In this document: piece after piece, positions 344 through 7,569 of the stretch
How the letters are laid out: every line of letters begins with the position of its first letter
Position numbering within the stretch: position 1 is the first letter of the stretch
Origin: a virus
Taxonomy: Duplodnaviria > Heunggongvirae > Uroviricota > Caudoviricetes
Length of the DNA stretch: 20,949 nucleotides
IMG/VR virus record: IMGVR_UViG_2585427741_000003
Reading direction: 5' to 3' (one strand)
Made by a program: the position numbers and the translations under genes
The notes under the pieces: model-generated
The model's input: the letters and a program-made list of their open reading frames with translations, nothing else
What the model was told of the DNA's origin: nothing
Databases searched by the model: none

Positions 344-1201
344 ATGAGCACCATCCTGAAATGGGCAGGTAATAAAACTGCCATTATGTCCGAACTGAAA
401 AAACATCTTCCTGCTGGCCCGCGACTGGTTGAACCTTTCGCGGGTTCCTGTGCTGTGATGATGGAGACGGATTACCCCAGCTATCTTGTTGCGGATATTA
501 ATCCTGATTTAATCAACCTCTATAAAAAGGTTGCTGCTGATTGTGAATCGTTTATATCTCGCGCCAGAGTTTTTTTTGAGATCGCAAACAGGGAGGTGGC
601 TTATTACAACATAAGGCAGGAGTTTAATTACTCAACTGAAATTACTGATTTCATGAAAGCGGTATATTTCCTGTATCTAAATCGTCACGGTTACCGTGGT
701 TTATGTCGCTATAACAAGAGCGGGCATTTCAACATTCCCTACGGTAATTATAAAAATCCGTATTTCCCTGAAAAAGAAATTCGCGCATTTGCAGAAAAAG
801 CCCAGCGGGCAACGTTTATCTGCGCCAGCTTTGATGAAACGCTGGCGATGTTGAAAGCGGGGGATGTGGTGTATTGCGATCCGCCGTATGACGGTACGTT
901 TTCCGGCTATCACACTGACGGCTTCACTGAAGATGACCAGTATCACCTGGCATCTGTTCTTGAACATCGATCATCAGAAGGTCATCCGGTCATTGTTTCT
1001 AACAGTGACACATCCCTGATCCGTTCGCTGTATCGCAATTTCACTCACCACTACATCAAGGCAAAACGCAGCATCGGCGTGTCAGCTGGCGAGAGTAAAT
1101 CTGCAACAGAAATCATTGCTGTTTCCGGGCCGCGCTGCTGGATGGGATTTGATCCTTCGCGTGGCGTGGATAGTTCTGCTGTGTACGAGGTGCGTGTATG
1201 A
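344..1201 (+). CDS. DNA N6-adenine methyltransferase, Dam (D12 class) family
   Basis: 285 aa; N-terminal SAM-binding KWAGNK...EPFAGS signature and catalytic DPPY motif (CDPPYDGTF). RBS CAGGAGG lies 6-12 nt upstream of the ATG. Stop overlaps the start of the next gene (ATGA at 1198-1201). Confidence 0.9.
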
Positions 1202-3612
1202 GTAATGACGATATGAGCAACTCTAGCGGCTTTAACGAGGCTGCCGCAGCATTTTCATGGAACGGCCCGAAAAAGGCCATTAACCCTTATCTGGAACCGG
1301 AGGAAGTTGCGCCGGAGTCTGCACTTTCAAACATGATCACTCTGTACGCTGCCGATAACGAGCAGGAACAGCAGCGCCGCGAGGCACTGAGTGATCAGGT
1401 CTGGGAACGTTATTTCTTTAATGAATCCCGTGATCCTGTCCAGCGCGAAATGGAGCAGGATAAGCTCATTAGCCGGGCAAAGCTGGCGCATGAGCAGCAG
1501 CGTTTTGACCCGGACATGGTCATTCTGTCGGACGTCAGCGCCCAGCCTACCCACATCAGCAAGCCGCTGATGCAACGTATCGAATACTTCAGCAGCCTGG
1601 GCAGGCCAAAGGCTTATTCCCGCTATTTGCGTGAGACGATTAAGCCATGTCTGGAGCGACTGGAGTATGTACGCGACAGTCAGCTATCCGCTTCTTTCCG
1701 TTTTATGGCAAGCCATCAAGGGCTTGAGGGCCTGCTGATCCTGCCTGAAATGAGTCAGGATCAGGTAAAACGCCTGTCCACCCTGGTAGCAGCGCATATG
1801 AGCATGTGTCTTGAGGCCGCTTGTGGTGATTTGTATGCCACCGATGACGTTAAGCCAGAAGAAATCCGCAAGACATGGGAAAAGGTGGCAGCGGAAACCC
1901 TGCGTCTGGATGTTATCCCGCCTGCGTTTGAGAAACTCCGCCGGAAAAGAAACCGCCGCAAACCTGTGCCCTATGAACTCATACCGGGTTCGCTGGCACG
2001 TATGCTTTGCGCCGACTGGTGGTACCGGAAATTATGGAAGATGCGTTGCGAATGGCGGGAAGAGCAGTTGCGTGCTGCCTGTCTGGTCAGCAAAAAAGCA
2101 TCTCCCTATGTCAGCTATGAAGCAGTGACACATAAACGTGAGCAGCGCCGCAAGTCGCTGGAGTTTTTCCGTTCTCATGAACTGGTGAACGAAGACGGCG
2201 ACACGCTGGATATGGAAGATGTGGTAAACGCCAGCAGCAGCAACCCGGCGCATCGCCGCAATGAGATGATGGCCTGTGTTAAAGGTCTGGAGCTTATCGC
2301 AGAAATGCGTGGTGACTGCGCCGTTTTCTACACTATCACCTGTCCGTCACGTTTCCATTCCACGCTCAACAACGGCAGACCCAACCCGACCTGGACAAAT
2401 GCGACGGTAAGACAAAGCAGCGATTATCTGGTCGGCATGTTTGCTGCATTTCGTAAGGCGATGCACAAAGCCGGGTTGCGCTGGTATGGCGTGCGGGTGG
2501 CTGAGCCGCACCATGACGGTACTGTGCACTGGCATCTCATGTGTTTCATGCGCAAAAAAGACCGCCGCGCTATTACTGCATTGTTGCGTAAGTTTGCCAT
2601 CCGTGAAGACCGCGAGGAACTGGGCAATAACACGGGGCCACGCTTTAAGTCTGAGCTGATAAACCCGCGCAAAGGAACGCCAACAAGCTACATCGCGAAA
2701 TACATCAGTAAGAACATTGACGGACGTGGTCTGGCTGGCGAGATCAGCAAGGAAACGGGTAAATCCCTGCGTGATAACGCCGAATACGTTAATGCCTGGG
2801 CGTCTCTGCATCGTGTTCAGCAGTTCCGCTTCTTTGGTATTCCGGGGCGTCAGGCGTACCGTGAACTTCGCTTGCTGGCTGGTCAGGCGGCAAGGCAACA
2901 GGGTGACAAAAAAGCAGGTGCGCCGGTACTGGATGACCCGCGCCTTGATGCCATCCTGGCTGCCGCTGATGCTGGCTGTTTTGCCACCTACATCATGAAG
3001 CAGGGCGGCGTACTGGTTCCCCGCAAATATCACCTTATCAGAACAGCTTATGAAATTAACGAAGAGCCGACCGCTTATGGCGATCACGGTATTCGTATTT
3101 ATGGCATCTGGTCACCCATTGTACAGGGCAAGATCTGCACTCATGCAATGAAATGGAAAATGGTTCGTAAGGCCGTTGACGTTCAGGAGGCGGCAGCCGA
3201 CCAGGGCGCTTGCGCCCCTTGGACTCGTGGCAATAACTGTCCCCTTGCTGAAAATTTGAACCAACAAGGGAAAGACAAATCAGCTGATGGGGACTCCAGA
3301 ACGGATATTACCCGTATGAATGACAAGGAGTTGCACGATTACCTGCACAGTATGAGCAAAAAAGAGCGCCGGGAACTGGCTGCAAGGTTACGCCAGGTGA
3401 AACCGAAACGGCGTAAAGACTACAAACAGCGAATTACAGACCATCAGCGACTGCAGCTCGTGTATGAGCTGAAGTCCAGAGGATTTGATGGCAGCGAGAA
3501 AGAGGTCGATTTACTCCTTCGCGGAGGCAGTATTCCGTCAGGAGCAGGCCTGCGTATCTTCTATCGGAACCAGCGTTTGCAGGAAGATGATCAGTGGCGG
3601 AACCTGTATTAA
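1198..3612 (+). CDS. A: Rolling-circle replication initiator endonuclease, P2 gpA-like
   Basis: 804 aa; metal-binding [11 protein letters not shown] (HxH-type motif) and catalytic tyrosine region [12 protein letters not shown] typical of the phage GPA replication-initiator family. Size is close to P2 gpA (about 760 aa, recalled). Confidence 0.88.
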
Positions 3613-3704
3613 TTACGCGGGTTAACAATTCGTGCTCTTAATAATACCAGGCATATCAGGCTGATGAACGTAAAAAAACGTTTTACATCAGTAAGATTAT
3701 TATA

Positions 3705-3724
3705 TACTGTAAATATAAACAGTG
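3705..3724 (+). promoter_or_regulatory. Putative LexA (SOS) box
   Basis: TACTGTAAATATAAACAGTG has the form CTGT-N8-ACAG with an AT-rich spacer, close to the consensus TACTGTATATATATACAGTA. It sits about 40 bp upstream of the RBS/ATG at 3766 and overlaps a candidate -10 TATACT. Confidence 0.6.
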
Positions 3725-3765
3725 GTTATACATACAGTATTGCGTGTGGTGTCATAGGAGGAAAG

Positions 3766-3954
3766 ATGCAGGACTATTTTTTGGAGTCTTTGAAGCTCCA
3801 GCGCATTGATTTTTTTCTTAAGCTTGTAGCGGCTAGTGAGTGTAGTGATGAAGAGAAGGGGCTGGCTCTGCAGTGGGTTTCTGAATTGACTGATGAACTC
3901 ATGGCAAAAATCAGAACCCACGAATACAACCGCTCAATGGATGTCATCAGCTGA
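3766..3954 (+). CDS. Hypothetical small protein (62 aa), first gene of the SOS-box unit; possible Tum-like antirepressor (speculative)
   Basis: ATG at 3766 is preceded by a strong RBS AGGAGG (3756-3761). The longer version in the ORF track (start 3664) would read through the LexA box. No family recognised from sequence alone. Confidence 0.45.
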   Translation: MQDYFLESLKLQRIDFFLKLVAASECSDEEKGLALQWVSELTDELMAKIRTHEYNRSMDVIS

Positions 3955-3964
3955 GGTGACTTTT

Positions 3965-4198
3965 ATGCGCATTGAAATAATGATCGATAAAGAGCAGAAG
4001 ATTAGCCAGTCTACCCTGGACGCCCTTGAATCCGAGCTTTACCGCAATCTGCGCCCCCTGTATCCCAAAACGGTAATTCGCATTCGCAAAGGTAGCTCTA
4101 ACGGTGTGGAACTAACCGGACTGCAACTGGACGAAGAAAGAAAACAAGTGATGAAAATTATGCAGAAGGTGTGGGAAGACGACAGCTGGCTGCATTAA
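3965..4198 (+). CDS. DinI-family protein (DNA-damage-inducible protein I-like)
   Basis: 77 aa, MRIEIMIDKEQKISQSTLDALESELYRNL...KQVMKIMQKVWEDDSWLH. The MRIE start, the central LDAL..EL block and the C-terminal acidic W-containing tail match the recalled DinI/MsgA pattern. RBS GAGGTGA lies upstream. Confidence 0.7.
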   Translation: MRIEIMIDKEQKISQSTLDALESELYRNLRPLYPKTVIRIRKGSSNGVELTGLQLDEERKQVMKIMQKVWEDDSWLH

Positions 4199-4333
4199 GA
4201 AACGTTGCTGGCGTCTGAACTTGCTTCTGGCGTCAGCAAGGTTGAACAACGAGCCCTTGCGAGGCGTTAGCTCTGTAGTGCATGTCTATGCCGCATGAGA
4301 TCGCATGATCGTTTGAGGATCGTTTTTGCTAAG

Positions 4334-4357
4334 GCCCGCCAGAACTGGCGGGCTTTT
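4334..4357 (+). terminator. Rho-independent terminator candidate
   Basis: GC-rich inverted repeat GCCCGCCAG / CTGGCGGGC followed by TTTT, downstream of the DinI-like gene. Confidence 0.6.
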
Positions 4358-4402
4358 GCGTAGATCATGCAGGTGCATGAAAACCACTACATAAAGCGGG
4401 CA

Positions 4403-4421
4403 GGCGTGGCGGGGATACGAG
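4403..4421. other. Putative cos (cohesive-end) site of the P2/186 type
   Basis: GGCGTGGCGGGGATACGAG: the first 13 nt match the recalled 186 cohesive end (GGCGTGGCGGGGA...) and resemble P2 cos (GGCGAGGCGGGGA...). Position fits the conserved order: replication region, cos, portal. Confidence 0.4.
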
Positions 4422-4434
4422 CGCGCGCAGCGGG

Positions 4435-4463
4435 TGGAAACTCAGATTTGAATGTTGTATAAA
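4435..4463 (+). promoter_or_regulatory. Candidate sigma70 promoter for the retron operon
   Basis: TGGAAA (4435-4440), 17-bp spacer, TATAAA (4458-4463), about 30 bp upstream of the effector ATG. Sequence match only. Confidence 0.35.
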
Positions 4464-4492
4464 AGATGGGATCATTCTGAGGAAAAGTGGAT

Positions 4493-5398
4493 ATGAAAAA
4501 GAAAACTATTCCGGAGTTGCAGAAGCAAAATCTGGCAAATTTAATTAAAAGTCGGCTTTTTCAACAGAAAAATAAAAATAAAGTTACTGTTTTCCTTTGC
4601 GGGGGCGATTTGAATGATCCGTTTTTTTGTAGAAATAAAGTTAAAAGAGTGTTGGAAACACATCCCAAAATAGAAATATTCTATCCTGAGGAGTTGTTTG
4701 ATGAGCTTTTGTATGGACAAGGTCAGCATAGTCTTTTAAGTTTGGAGAATATTTTAGCTGATTCAGTCGATGTTATTATTATTATTCCTGAAAGCCCAGG
4801 GTCTTTCGCTGAATTGGGCGCATTTTCAAATAATGAAAAACTGTGCAAAAAAATGATATGTCTTCAGGATGACAAATTCAAACTTAAAAAAAGCTTTCTT
4901 AATTATGGGCCTATAAAACTGCTTCGGCGTGCTAATAGCGGTGCAGTATTGCGAGGAGATTTGTCGACTCTTGAAAGCTTGAGTACAGGTAAAGCTTTTT
5001 ATAATAGAATTATAAAAAGTATTAATGACATCAAAAAAAATAACCCAGTTAATCACTCAATAGATAATATTCTTCACGCTCGGCGTTTTATACTGCCATG
5101 TATATATTTGATGGATGGTATAGATAATATACTTCTATATGAGCTATTACATTTGGTGACTAAGAAAGATGCTATTCTTTGTGAAATTATCGTTAAGTCT
5201 GTTATTTCAAGCTTGATTAAAGAGTCAATAATTAGGCGTTCAGTTCAAGGATACCATATTACAGAAATTGGTATGCAATACGTTCTTGAGCATTTTGATC
5301 GAAAGGCTTTGGACAATCTACGACTGGATATGATGAACTTCGAAAATCGTGGTAAAACAATACTCCACTATGATAGGATGCGTTTTGCGCACCCTTAG
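4493..5398 (+). CDS. Retron effector candidate: nucleoside 2-deoxyribosyltransferase-like (NDT-like) N-terminal domain plus C-terminal helical, possibly DNA-binding, domain
   Basis: 301 aa from ATG 4493 (RBS GAGGAAA upstream; the ORF track begins two codons earlier at GTG 4487). Rossmann-like start KVTVFLCGG and DVIIIIPESPGSFAELGAF block with a candidate catalytic Glu in SFAELG. Low-GC codon usage unlike the flanking phage genes. Stop codon TAG (5396-5398) lies inside retron repeat a1. Confidence 0.65.
   Translation: MKKKTIPELQKQNLANLIKSRLFQQKNKNKVTVFLCGGDLNDPFFCRNKVKRVLETHPKIEIFYPEELFDELLYGQGQHSLLSLENILADSVDVIIIIPESPGSFAELGAFSNNEKLCKKMICLQDDKFKLKKSFLNYGPIKLLRRANSGAVLRGDLSTLESLSTGKAFYNRIIKSINDIKKNNPVNHSIDNILHARRFILPCIYLMDGIDNILLYELLHLVTKKDAILCEIIVKSVISSLIKESIIRRSVQGYHITEIGMQYVLEHFDRKALDNLRLDMMNFENRGKTILHYDRMRFAHP
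5387..5397 (+). repeat. Retron inverted repeat a1
   Basis: GCGCACCCTTA; exact reverse complement of 5535-5545. Confidence 0.8.
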
Positions 5399-5534
5399 CG
5401 AGTGGCTTCTCCGGAAGTTCACTGGACAGTGTTTCGCTGTCCTACATACAATCTGAAGTTTTACCAGTTCCCTCATTGAAAGGAGAACATCTCCCGATGT
5501 TCTCCTTTCACTTCGGAATCTGATTTTTATGACG

Positions 5535-5545
5535 TAAGGGTGCGC
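5535..5545 (+). repeat. Retron inverted repeat a2
   Basis: TAAGGGTGCGC; exact reverse complement of 5387-5397; ends 2 nt before the RT start codon. Confidence 0.8.
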
Positions 5546-5547
5546 TC

Positions 5548-6522
5548 ATGACTTCCGCAACACCATCTCAGGTTTTTCGCTTACGCAATCTTGGATTGCC
5601 TGTTATGTCCTCTTTAGAGGATATGTCTAGAGAAATGCGTTTATCAGTAGACATACTCCGGTTGTACATTTATCGTGCTGACAAATACTATAAGGTTTAT
5701 TCGTTGCCAAAAAGAGATGGCAAGAGATCCCGCATCATTTCACAGCCATCACGTGAGCTGAAGGCATTGCAAGCTTGGGTGTTAAGAAACATCCTTGATA
5801 AGTTACATTCATCCCCATTTTCCAAAGGCTTTGAAAAAGGGCAATCAATATTAAATAATGCCAGCCCACATGTAGGAGCTAACTATGTATTAAATATTGA
5901 TTTAGAAGATTGTTTTAATACTATTCTGATAGAGAAAATCTATACTGTTTTTCATTCTCTGGGGTATAACTCTACTATTTCTAATGCTTTAGCAAGATTG
6001 TGTTCATTTAATGGTTCGCTACCTCAAGGTGCACCATCTTCTCCAAAGATTGCGAATCTTGTTTTAACTAAATTAGATTATAGAATACATGGATATGCAG
6101 GTAGTAAGGGGATCGTATTTACTCGATATGCCGATGATTTGACTTTATCTGCTCAATCTTTAAAAAAAATACTTAAAGCTAAGTCATTTGTATGCTCTAT
6201 AATACCAAGTGAATCTTTGAAGGTTAATTATAATAAAGTTGCGATTCATGGCCCCAAAGCAAGGAAGGAGGTTACTGGGCTCGTTTTATCTATTGATAAT
6301 GTTGGAGTTGGCAGAATACGTTATCGCGAAATTAGAAGTAAGATCCATTATCTGGCGGTAAAAAGAAATTCTGATTTCGAACATGTTAAAGGACTTATTG
6401 CGTTTGTTAAAAGTGTAGACAAGAAAAACTATAGAAAATTGATGACTTTCTCAAATAAAATGTCTGAAGCATATGGGGTTGATCTAAGTGTTCTTTTTCC
6501 TAAAAACAAAAAGGCCATTTAA
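5548..6522 (+). CDS. ret: Retron-type reverse transcriptase
   Basis: 324 aa; RT motifs: PKRDGKRSRIISQP (motif 1/2), NASPH (retron NAxxH), LPQGAPSSPKIANL (motif 4), RYADDL (catalytic YADD), and the retron-specific VTG (EVTGLVL). Size is typical of Ec86/Ec73-class RTs. Low-GC composition. Confidence 0.92.
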   Translation: MTSATPSQVFRLRNLGLPVMSSLEDMSREMRLSVDILRLYIYRADKYYKVYSLPKRDGKRSRIISQPSRELKALQAWVLRNILDKLHSSPFSKGFEKGQSILNNASPHVGANYVLNIDLEDCFNTILIEKIYTVFHSLGYNSTISNALARLCSFNGSLPQGAPSSPKIANLVLTKLDYRIHGYAGSKGIVFTRYADDLTLSAQSLKKILKAKSFVCSIIPSESLKVNYNKVAIHGPKARKEVTGLVLSIDNVGVGRIRYREIRSKIHYLAVKRNSDFEHVKGLIAFVKSVDKKNYRKLMTFSNKMSEAYGVDLSVLFPKNKKAI

Positions 6523-6532
6523 TGGCCTTTTT
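6508..6532. terminator. Palindromic A/T-flanked hairpin between convergent RT and portal genes (possible bidirectional terminator)
   Basis: AAAAAGGCCATTTAATGGCCTTTTT is a perfect 25-nt palindrome. It overlaps the RT stop codon and ends 5 nt before the portal gene stop (6538-6540, minus strand). Short GC stem, so moderate confidence. Confidence 0.45.
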
Positions 6533-6537
6533 GTTTA

Positions 6538-7569
6538 TTAGGTAATTGAATAACTCACGAAATTAATAACTTCTTCATTTATCCATTCGTTCAGCTCTTC
6601 TAGTCTTTTTTGTAAAGGGATGAGTTCATTCCTCACAAAAACATTAGCAGCTTTCTCTACATCCCCAAACCCTCCAACATTATTAGGCATAATCCCCATC
6701 ATTTGCGGTGGCACACGATGCGCCGCCATCATGTCATCCCGGCTCACGTTCTTGATGTTCAGAAACTCATCCTTCGCCGCGACCTCTGACAACGGGATAA
6801 TCTGAAGCCCGTCCTTTTTGCCGTTAGGCGAGTACATAAACAGGTTGCGGAAGTTACCCGGTCCTTTGGCGCTTTTCATCGCGTTGCGGAGGTTGTTCAC
6901 GTCCTCCTGGTTCTGCGCGGCATCGGTCATGTACATGATGAAGCCAGCATGACTGCCGTTTATGTAATACTTTCGACGGAACAGCGTGGCGGACTCATTG
7001 AGCAGGGCGGACGGAATAGCAGAAAGATAGCCGGGCAGGCCATAGATCTCCTGATTTATGTCCGGTTCCATCAGATGGAAAATGCTGCCTTTCGTGAACT
7101 GATACGGTTGCGTGGTCATGCCGTATTGCACAAACCAGTAGGTATCTAGGTCTAATCCACGTCGGGTGTATTTTGCCAGCGCAGGCTCAAGAGCGATAAC
7201 TTCACCGAATCGGTTCGTGCGTTTCTCCAGGTAGGCGTTACCAAATACCAGATAGTCCTGCACAAAACGTGAAAAAGCCTGCTGGCTGAGCAGCGGGTGA
7301 GGGATGTAGGTACTGGTCAGAATGTTGCACTTTACTGCAATCGGGGAACTGTGATGCACAGCAGCGCGGAAGGTGCGCGCCAGTCCGTCAAAGCTGACGG
7401 GAGGCTCATACCAGCGATCTGTCTGTACGCATTCCACATAGTCCAGCAGTTCGCGGCGGTCAAGTACGGGAATGGGATCACCGAAGCTGAATGCTTCGGC
7501 TGTAGTCTGGCTTTTGAGCTGGCTCTGTTTCGTCGCCGCAGCGCGGTTCTTCTTACTCTTTCCCATCAA
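6538..7569 (-). CDS. Q: Portal protein, P2 gpQ-like
   Basis: 343 aa (P2 Q about 344 aa, recalled); position and orientation (leftward, next to P) match the P2/186 map. Start overlaps the stop of P (ATGA). Confidence 0.85.
   Translation of the reverse strand: MMGKSKKNRAAATKQSQLKSQTTAEAFSFGDPIPVLDRRELLDYVECVQTDRWYEPPVSFDGLARTFRAAVHHSSPIAVKCNILTSTYIPHPLLSQQAFSRFVQDYLVFGNAYLEKRTNRFGEVIALEPALAKYTRRGLDLDTYWFVQYGMTTQPYQFTKGSIFHLMEPDINQEIYGLPGYLSAIPSALLNESATLFRRKYYINGSHAGFIMYMTDAAQNQEDVNNLRNAMKSAKGPGNFRNLFMYSPNGKKDGLQIIPLSEVAAKDEFLNIKNVSRDDMMAAHRVPPQMMGIMPNNVGGFGDVEKAANVFVRNELIPLQKRLEELNEWINEEVINFVSYSIT

Follow-up and report, generated by a model that had tools for sequence, protein, structure and literature searches.

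An Ec86-type retron with a predicted bilobed, NDT-like effector in a P2-like prophage

The retron cassette and its prophage setting

The window, the whole 20,949-nucleotide stretch of DNA analysed here (IMG/VR virus record IMGVR_UViG_2585427741_000003), contains a complete type II-A3 retron, in which the effector gene comes first and is followed by an msr-msd ncRNA and a reverse transcriptase (RT) gene (Table 1). The cassette lies in a P2-like prophage, between a DinI-like gene that comes after the gpA-type replication endonuclease and the portal gene, in the cos-proximal gpA-gpQ cargo hotspot described by Rousset et al. (PMC9122126). Ec86 occupies the same slot in BL21 and in the intact P2-like prophage of strain VG1046-3E9. 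The GC content of the cassette (4493-6522) is 35%, compared with 50% for the prophage sequence on its left and 55% on its right, consistent with horizontally acquired cargo. The counterpart of the gene at 344-1201 is annotated ‘DNA adenine methylase’ in matching genomes.

Table 1 Features of the retron cassette and of flanking prophage genes in the window
Feature	Position	Strand	Basis or remark
Dam-family adenine methyltransferase, prophage-encoded, outside the retron	344-1201	+	TIGR00571, E = 1.3e-96
P2 gpA-like replication endonuclease, left border of the hotspot	1198-3612	+	Annotation in matching genomes
Retron effector gene	4493-5398	+	301 aa plus stop; Ec86/Eco1-type ‘retron St85 family effector’
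N-lobe, NDT-like flavodoxin-type β/α, predicted active site and dimer interface	4580-4972	+	About residues 30-160
GAA codon of E107, predicted catalytic nucleophile in PESPGSFAELG	4811-4813	+	Aligns with Ec86 E106
Predicted long helix joining the lobes, counterpart of Ec86 α-9	4991-5041	+	Residues 167-183, AlphaFold2
C-lobe, predicted winged helix-turn-helix then two more helices	5081-5347	+	Residues 197-285
msr-msd ncRNA	5386-5546	+	Ec86 ncRNA homology, covariation, covariance model
a1 repeat; a2 repeat; UUAGC	5386-5397; 5535-5545; 5395-5399	+	Ec86 ncRNA alignment
msd template, predicted msDNA of ~82 nt (reverse complement), long hairpin	5452-5533	+	Analogy to Ec86
Retron reverse transcriptase, 324 aa, type II-A	5548-6522	+	Pfam, PADLOC, NCBIfam
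P2-type portal protein (gpQ), right border of the hotspot	6538-7569	-	Annotation in matching genomes

The allele is rare: among 5,426 complete E. coli genomes, 4 carry it at ≥99% identity, three with a cassette matching at 99.8-100% and the fourth at 99.3% (with a slightly wider query). The matching genomes already annotate a retron St85 family effector and RT, and the annotated effector copies of E. coli H1 and KFu015 are 100% identical. A text search outside supplementary tables found no paper naming the RefSeq accessions of the effector or the RT.

The interval from the DinI-like gene to the effector varies. It holds a DUF2971 gene in strains KFu015 and 97.3, two hypothetical genes in strain H1 and a small opposite-strand ORF in BL21; in the window it contains no gene, with a GC-rich terminator-like hairpin at about 4335-4360. 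This comparison covered window positions 4199-4492 and loci L001 (4050-5777), L002 (3972-5215) and L003 (2824-3823), and the exact arrangement of the window was absent from the 5,426 complete E. coli genomes.

The ncRNA was located in the 150 nt separating the effector from the RT ORF, by homology to the Ec86 ncRNA (72.5% identity) and with a covariance model built from a 14-sequence alignment (the window and thirteen relatives from other genomes). The a1 and a2 repeats are the same in the window and Ec86 ncRNAs. The RNAalifold consensus structure has a stem formed by a1 and a2, two hairpins in the msr and one long hairpin in the msd, and 28 of its 45 pairs show compensatory changes; 88.7% of alignment cells were paired versus 37-43% in slid controls, and none of 500 shuffles reached the observed values. 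The covariance model scored the window ncRNA at 142.6 bits and found the RNA directly 3′ of the effector gene in 34 sequences, 32 of them fetched loci and the other two the window and BL21, with matches extending to Bacteroidota, Nitrospirota and Chloroflexota MAGs.

The last codons of the effector (A-H-P), together with the TAG stop, fall within a1 and the invariant UUAGC (5386-5399), so tail residues 294-301, which have a pLDDT below 50 in the structural model described below, are encoded by RNA-constrained sequence. The overlap of stop codon and a1 is also present in Ec86 and many relatives. The G of UUAGC at 5398, the final base of the stop codon, is presumably the branching and priming G. 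The msDNA ends were predicted by analogy to the 86-nt msDNA of Ec86, whose template was located exactly in BL21, giving a predicted hairpin of -19.1 kcal/mol in an msDNA of 82 nt, compared with 85-86 nt for Ec86; in recent structures the Ec86 msDNA is 85 nt, not 86 nt, according to a passage in PMC12673091.

The RT matched Pfam RVT_1 (E = 1e-24), PADLOC RT_II-A (E = 4.9e-123) and NCBIfam NF038233 (272 bits; cut-off 235), and is 59% identical to the Ec86 RT. A retron RT lies directly downstream of the effector homologue in 68 of 76 related loci, and the order effector-ncRNA-RT was found in 31 of the 32 fetched loci with a detected ncRNA.

A search of Rfam over 3600-6700 at E ≤ 1 returned no retron family, and gave sub-threshold chance matches near a terminator at ~6500. 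At 6487-6540, between the convergent RT and portal genes, a strong hairpin is followed by a T-run; it drew the sub-threshold Rfam matches (SraG, DapZ and others, E 0.1-0.8) and is most simply a bidirectional intrinsic terminator.

Family, predicted fold and active site of the effector

The effector ORF is intact on the + strand, from ATG 4493 to TAG 5396-5398. An in-frame GTG at 4487 is too near a GAGGA Shine-Dalgarno-like element (just 1-2 nt past it), so ATG 4493 is the likely start; it is also the RefSeq start call for WP_032301626.1, to which the window effector is identical.

Its family similarity is far beyond chance. The effector matched PADLOC NDT_II-A (PDLC02930; E = 2.5e-97, covering residues 10-286 of 301), with the Ec86-type model as top PADLOC match (323.7 bits versus 127.5 and 37.5 bits), and NCBIfam NF038232 (186.3 bits; cut-off 100), the ‘retron St85 family effector protein’, a name taken from Salmonella STM3845 (STM3845_fam). 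In a phmmer search of PDB sequences the sole match was the effector of Ec86 (Eco1), the type II-A3 retron of BL21 (7v9x, 7xjg, 8qbk, 8qbm, 9jm0 and the E106A mutant 8qbl), a full-length homologue (E = 5e-92, residues 1-301). The window effector is 51% identical to the BL21 protein overall, 57% over residues 1-160 and 45% over residues 161-301, and its loop before α-9 is 6 residues shorter. Pfam gave no match at E ≤ 0.1, in a copy of the database that lacks an effector model and lacks PF28093, a precomputed label. The family comprises 545 clusters at E ≤ 1e-5, mainly from Gammaproteobacteria, and the related loci fetched reach Bacteroidota and other phyla.

AlphaFold2, given a 62-sequence alignment from which the BL21 sequence was left out, produced a model (mean pLDDT 83.8, pTM 0.79) that is bilobed, with an NDT-like N-lobe and a winged-helix C-lobe. 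The predicted N-lobe is a β/α domain running from strand 31-36 to strand 152-155; the predicted C-lobe consists of helices 197-206, 212-223 and 227-243, then a wing β-hairpin at 247-256, in which the stretch RRSVQGYHIT forms the wing. The initial annotation had the coordinates and description of the ORF right, and both peptides that it quoted are present (PESPGSFAELG, residues 99-109; RRSVQGYHITEIGMQYVLEHF, residues 248-268). Its domain limits, about residues 30-160 and the last ~140 residues, agree with the predicted structure, and the C-terminal module that it took to be winged-helix-like has canonical winged-helix topology in the model. Its picture of a C-terminal part both helical and ‘basic in places’ stands in the first respect and needs qualifying in the second, as the N-lobe (pI 9.3, net +7) is more basic than the nearly neutral C-lobe (pI 8.0, net +1). 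Compared with known structures by Foldseek, as had been proposed, the model superposed on full-length Eco1 effector chains (8qbl_E, 8qbk_E and 7xjg_J) with a TM score of 0.84 over 302 columns (E about 1e-28).

This architecture in itself is nothing new, being already known for type II retrons. The two domains of the Ec86 effector have reportedly been visible by cryo-EM since 2022. Mestre et al. (2020, PMC7736814) predicted it, describing type II retron effectors as an NDT-like head with a winged-helix tail, and the Ec86 effector has been termed ‘bilobated’ (bioRxiv 10.1101/2023.08.16.553469).

The glutamate previously put forward as candidate nucleophile is the right residue: E107 corresponds to the catalytic E106 of Ec86 and was kept in 50 of 50 and 62 of 62 aligned homologues. 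The PDB describes 8qbl as ‘inactive effector (E106A)’ and 8qbk as ‘ADP-ribosylated effector’. In Ec86, E106 is catalytic, D69 is a thymine lock, E65, S100, F128, K131, S133 and N136 contact ATP, and E84, N112, N113 and R141 make dimer contacts (bioRxiv 10.1101/2023.08.16.553469). With an offset of one residue, the alignment places the first two at E107 and D70 of the window effector, the ATP contacts at E66, S101, F129, K132, S134 and N137, all conserved, and the dimer contacts at E85, N113, N114 and K142, the last an R141 to K142 replacement. Of these residues, E107, E66, S101, S134, N137 and E85 do not vary across the 50 or 62 homologues aligned.

Proposed function and competing readings

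We propose, with a probability of roughly 0.88, that the product of the ORF is the toxin, or effector, of a type II-A3 retron, an Ec86/Eco1 allele carried as P2-like prophage cargo, and that it would act as an msDNA-restrained NAD(P)+ N-glycosidase. The window retron shares with Ec86 the bilobed fold (TM 0.84), the catalytic and ligand residues, the gene order, the a1/a2 repeats, the gpA-gpQ hotspot of a P2-like prophage and the placement of the effector end and stop inside a1; the effectors are just 51% identical, the RTs 59% and the ncRNAs 72.5%. Homology to Ec86 predicts that the RT copies the msd into a hairpin msDNA of ~82 nt and that the RT-msDNA binds the effector via the basic N-lobe, α-9 and the C-lobe, keeping the bound N-lobe dimers closed and inactive, probably as part of filaments. 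The effector would be released when a phage factor alters or removes the msDNA, E107 would attack the N-glycosidic bond of NAD(P)+, and the ensuing depletion would abort infection, with the infected cell dying or arresting. We infer msDNA production, filaments, toxicity and NADase activity of the window system from its 51%-identical homologue.

The published chemistry of Ec86 is not uniform, with NAD(P)+ hydrolysis on one side and depletion of adenine and its nucleosides on the other. Trigger induction of Ec86 left adenine, adenosine and deoxyadenosine depleted and guanine derivatives raised, and ATP and thymine densities were found in the active site (bioRxiv 10.1101/2023.08.16.553469). These data, and the conserved ATP-contact residues of the window effector, favour a protein of the same family and architecture that cleaves or exchanges adenine nucleosides or nucleotides, poisoning the pool, in place of hydrolysing NAD(P)+; we consider this unlikely but keep it as an alternative chemistry. 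Against it, passages in later papers sum up the activity of Eco1 as N-glycosidase hydrolysis of NAD(P)+ (PMC12673091; PMC13376987; PMC12405507), PDB 8qbk is an ADP-ribosylated effector, and loss of NAD+ could lower adenine derivatives secondarily.

The winged-helix tail might in principle be an autonomous DNA sensor or transcription regulator, acting on phage DNA or an operator, with the N-lobe as an accessory. PadR/MarR-type winged-helix regulators resemble the C-lobe at the level of fold alone (10-20% identity), and membership of that group was rejected, as no Pfam or NCBIfam regulator family matched by sequence and the C-lobe is nearly neutral (net +1 versus +7 for the N-lobe). The Ec86 stem-loop contacts important for defence (K29, K149, K177 and K185) are on the N-lobe and α-9, and the sole reported C-lobe contact with msDNA, R219, belongs to an interface judged less important (bioRxiv 10.1101/2023.08.16.553469); the window effector has I213 at this position. 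The effector is, moreover, obligately tied to a retron RT and ncRNA in the 68 of 76 loci, and an autonomous regulator is improbable. Because the N-lobe is basic, the C-lobe near neutral and R219 replaced by I213, the winged-helix C-lobe is most likely a docking or assembly module on RT-msDNA. Of the earlier suggestion that the tail senses msDNA or phage DNA, the phage-DNA part probably does not hold for the same reasons of charge and contact, and docking on RT-msDNA would take its place.

A decaying, non-functional retron remnant is very improbable. The prophage that carries Ec86 in BL21 is defective, with cII and gpA pseudogenised, and E. coli LR-48 (NZ_AP027543.1, 2973989-2974199) keeps just the final 211 nt of this RT gene, 100% identical and with no annotated feature, apparently what a deletion left of this retron allele. 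In the window, however, the effector and RT ORFs are intact with all catalytic residues present, the ncRNA scores 142.6 bits with its pairing intact, and the neighbouring prophage genes are full length; the cassette also recurs at 99.8-100% identity in three complete genomes and at 99.3% in a fourth.

‘NDT-like’ is a fair term for how the effector works; its relation to classical NDTs is remote, and placing it in their family is not supported. Like L. leichmannii NDT (LlNDT; 1f8x/1f8y), the effector has a predicted Rossmann/flavodoxin-like β/α fold and a predicted Glu nucleophile after a β-strand and a Gly-rich turn, and LlNDT and Ec86 both act as dimers (for Ec86, bioRxiv 10.1101/2023.08.16.553469, where the structural comparison of E106 with the NDT catalytic Glu was also made). 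Unlike LlNDT, a base-exchange enzyme, the retron effector has an added winged-helix lobe, is under RT-msDNA control and is reported as an NAD(P)+ hydrolase. Classical membership (PF05014/PF15891) found no statistical support: Pfam gave no match at E ≤ 0.1, hhalign of the effector family profile against LlNDT (query sequence identical to 1f8x_A) was not significant (probability 0.3%, E = 0.21), and no NDT chain was among the top Foldseek matches of the effector model. A housekeeping nucleoside 2-deoxyribosyltransferase for nucleoside salvage can be set aside almost entirely, even with the shared β-strand/Glu motif, the non-significant hhalign alignment that lays IIIPESPGSFAELG over VYIPDEEDVGLGMELG with E107 opposite the LlNDT nucleophile E98, and weak PF15891 matches (1.2e-3) in just 2 of 62 homologues.

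Trigger site and comparison with other retrons

Defence by Ec86 against phage K42 needs the CCTGG Dcm site in the msDNA stem, and three different replacements of this site each abolished defence (bioRxiv 10.1101/2023.08.16.553469). A motif scan found no CCWGG anywhere in the window ncRNA, where TTCCGAA stands at the position homologous to TTCCTGG in Ec86, and no GATC either in the ncRNA or in the msDNA predicted from it. The Ec86 msDNA-contact lysines K29, K149, K177, K178 and K185 correspond to K30, G150, N171, R172 and D179 in the window effector; four of the five are replaced, K178 conservatively by R172, and only K30 is identical. Given K149 to G150, K177 to N171 and K185 to D179, the regulatory interface may differ from that of Ec86. 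Since the window msDNA lacks the motif, Dcm methylation at CCWGG, which activates Ec86, is probably not the trigger here, and the missing CCWGG and GATC together with the changed contact lysines suggest that the trigger probably differs from that of Ec86. That E. coli B tolerates Ec86 solely for want of Dcm was considered and dropped, as Ec86 ran in MG1655, where its msDNA had low cytosine methylation in the empty-vector control (bioRxiv 10.1101/2023.08.16.553469).

Motifs were also counted across the family, in the window msd (5452-5533) and those of loci L003 and L005-L060, these being related sequences whose kinship the statistics ignore. CCWGG occurred in 2 of 34 msds, about the chance rate (1.2-2.3 expected). 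GATC occurred in 1 of 34, against 7.6 expected from composition shuffles, and once among 32 non-redundant msds, where a first-order Markov model predicts 7.4 (P about 0.002 in both models); with related sequences and a hairpin that constrains composition, this depletion is a lead rather than a result. It may reflect avoidance of self-triggering by resident Dam, and fits with the Dam gene that the window prophage itself carries a few kb from a retron whose msDNA has no GATC.

The window effector is an uncharacterised allele of a known, structurally solved family, and its interest is in the sensor differences, not in the architecture. We see about an even chance that the window retron is a natural Ec86 allele with a re-tuned sensor, in which the hairpin-reading surface of the effector has changed together with the msDNA, another phage cue is read, specificity cassettes are interchangeable and GATC avoidance has been selected. 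If so, candidates for the cue include an SSB, a helicase, a nuclease and a different DNA modification; each allele at the gpA-gpQ hotspot of P2, with its own msDNA and matching effector surface, would be an interchangeable specificity cassette; and GATC avoidance in the msd would represent selection against self-triggering by resident Dam, including the prophage’s own. The value of the system is comparative: it is a sister, at 51% identity, of the retron that is understood best, sits in the same prophage slot and keeps all catalytic residues. The lost Dcm site and the replacement of most msDNA-contact lysines make it a natural experiment on trigger specificity in the msDNA-effector interface, and the apparent GATC avoidance offers a small, testable lead on how retrons escape triggering by host or prophage methylases. 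The window retron is also a possible second scaffold for retron-based editing tools.

RcaT of Retron-Sen2 (St85) and Retron-Eco9, both type II-A1, belongs to the same NF038232 family and PADLOC NDT_II-A group. These are tripartite toxin-antitoxin systems, with an NDT-like toxin neutralised by RT-msDNA and a trigger that acts on the msDNA. They differ from the window retron in having the ncRNA upstream of the toxin gene, not between effector and RT, and in RT clade (clade 1 versus clade 9 here; Mestre et al. 2020, PMC7736814). Dam triggers Sen2 through a GATC in the Sen2 msDNA, a site that the window msDNA lacks. Retron-Eco11 (type III-A3), which has an RT of clade 9 like the window, follows the same logic with a PRTase effector, in which a nucleotide-metabolising N-lobe and a winged-helix C-lobe are held by RT-msDNA, but its N-lobe has a PRTase fold, not an NDT-like one, and its trigger is phage helicases (PMC12746101).

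Matches to the N-lobe alone were found in Klebsiella P2-like phages (4LV2017 and the Kp48xx series) and a Pseudomonas Pf filamentous phage. These proteins (NC_047818.1, 11139-11483; OR863249.1, 429-815) cover about residues 30-150 at 32-42% identity and are labelled ‘retron St85 family effector protein’ in RefSeq; they may be NDT-like toxins without an Ec86-type tail, or belong to other retron subtypes.
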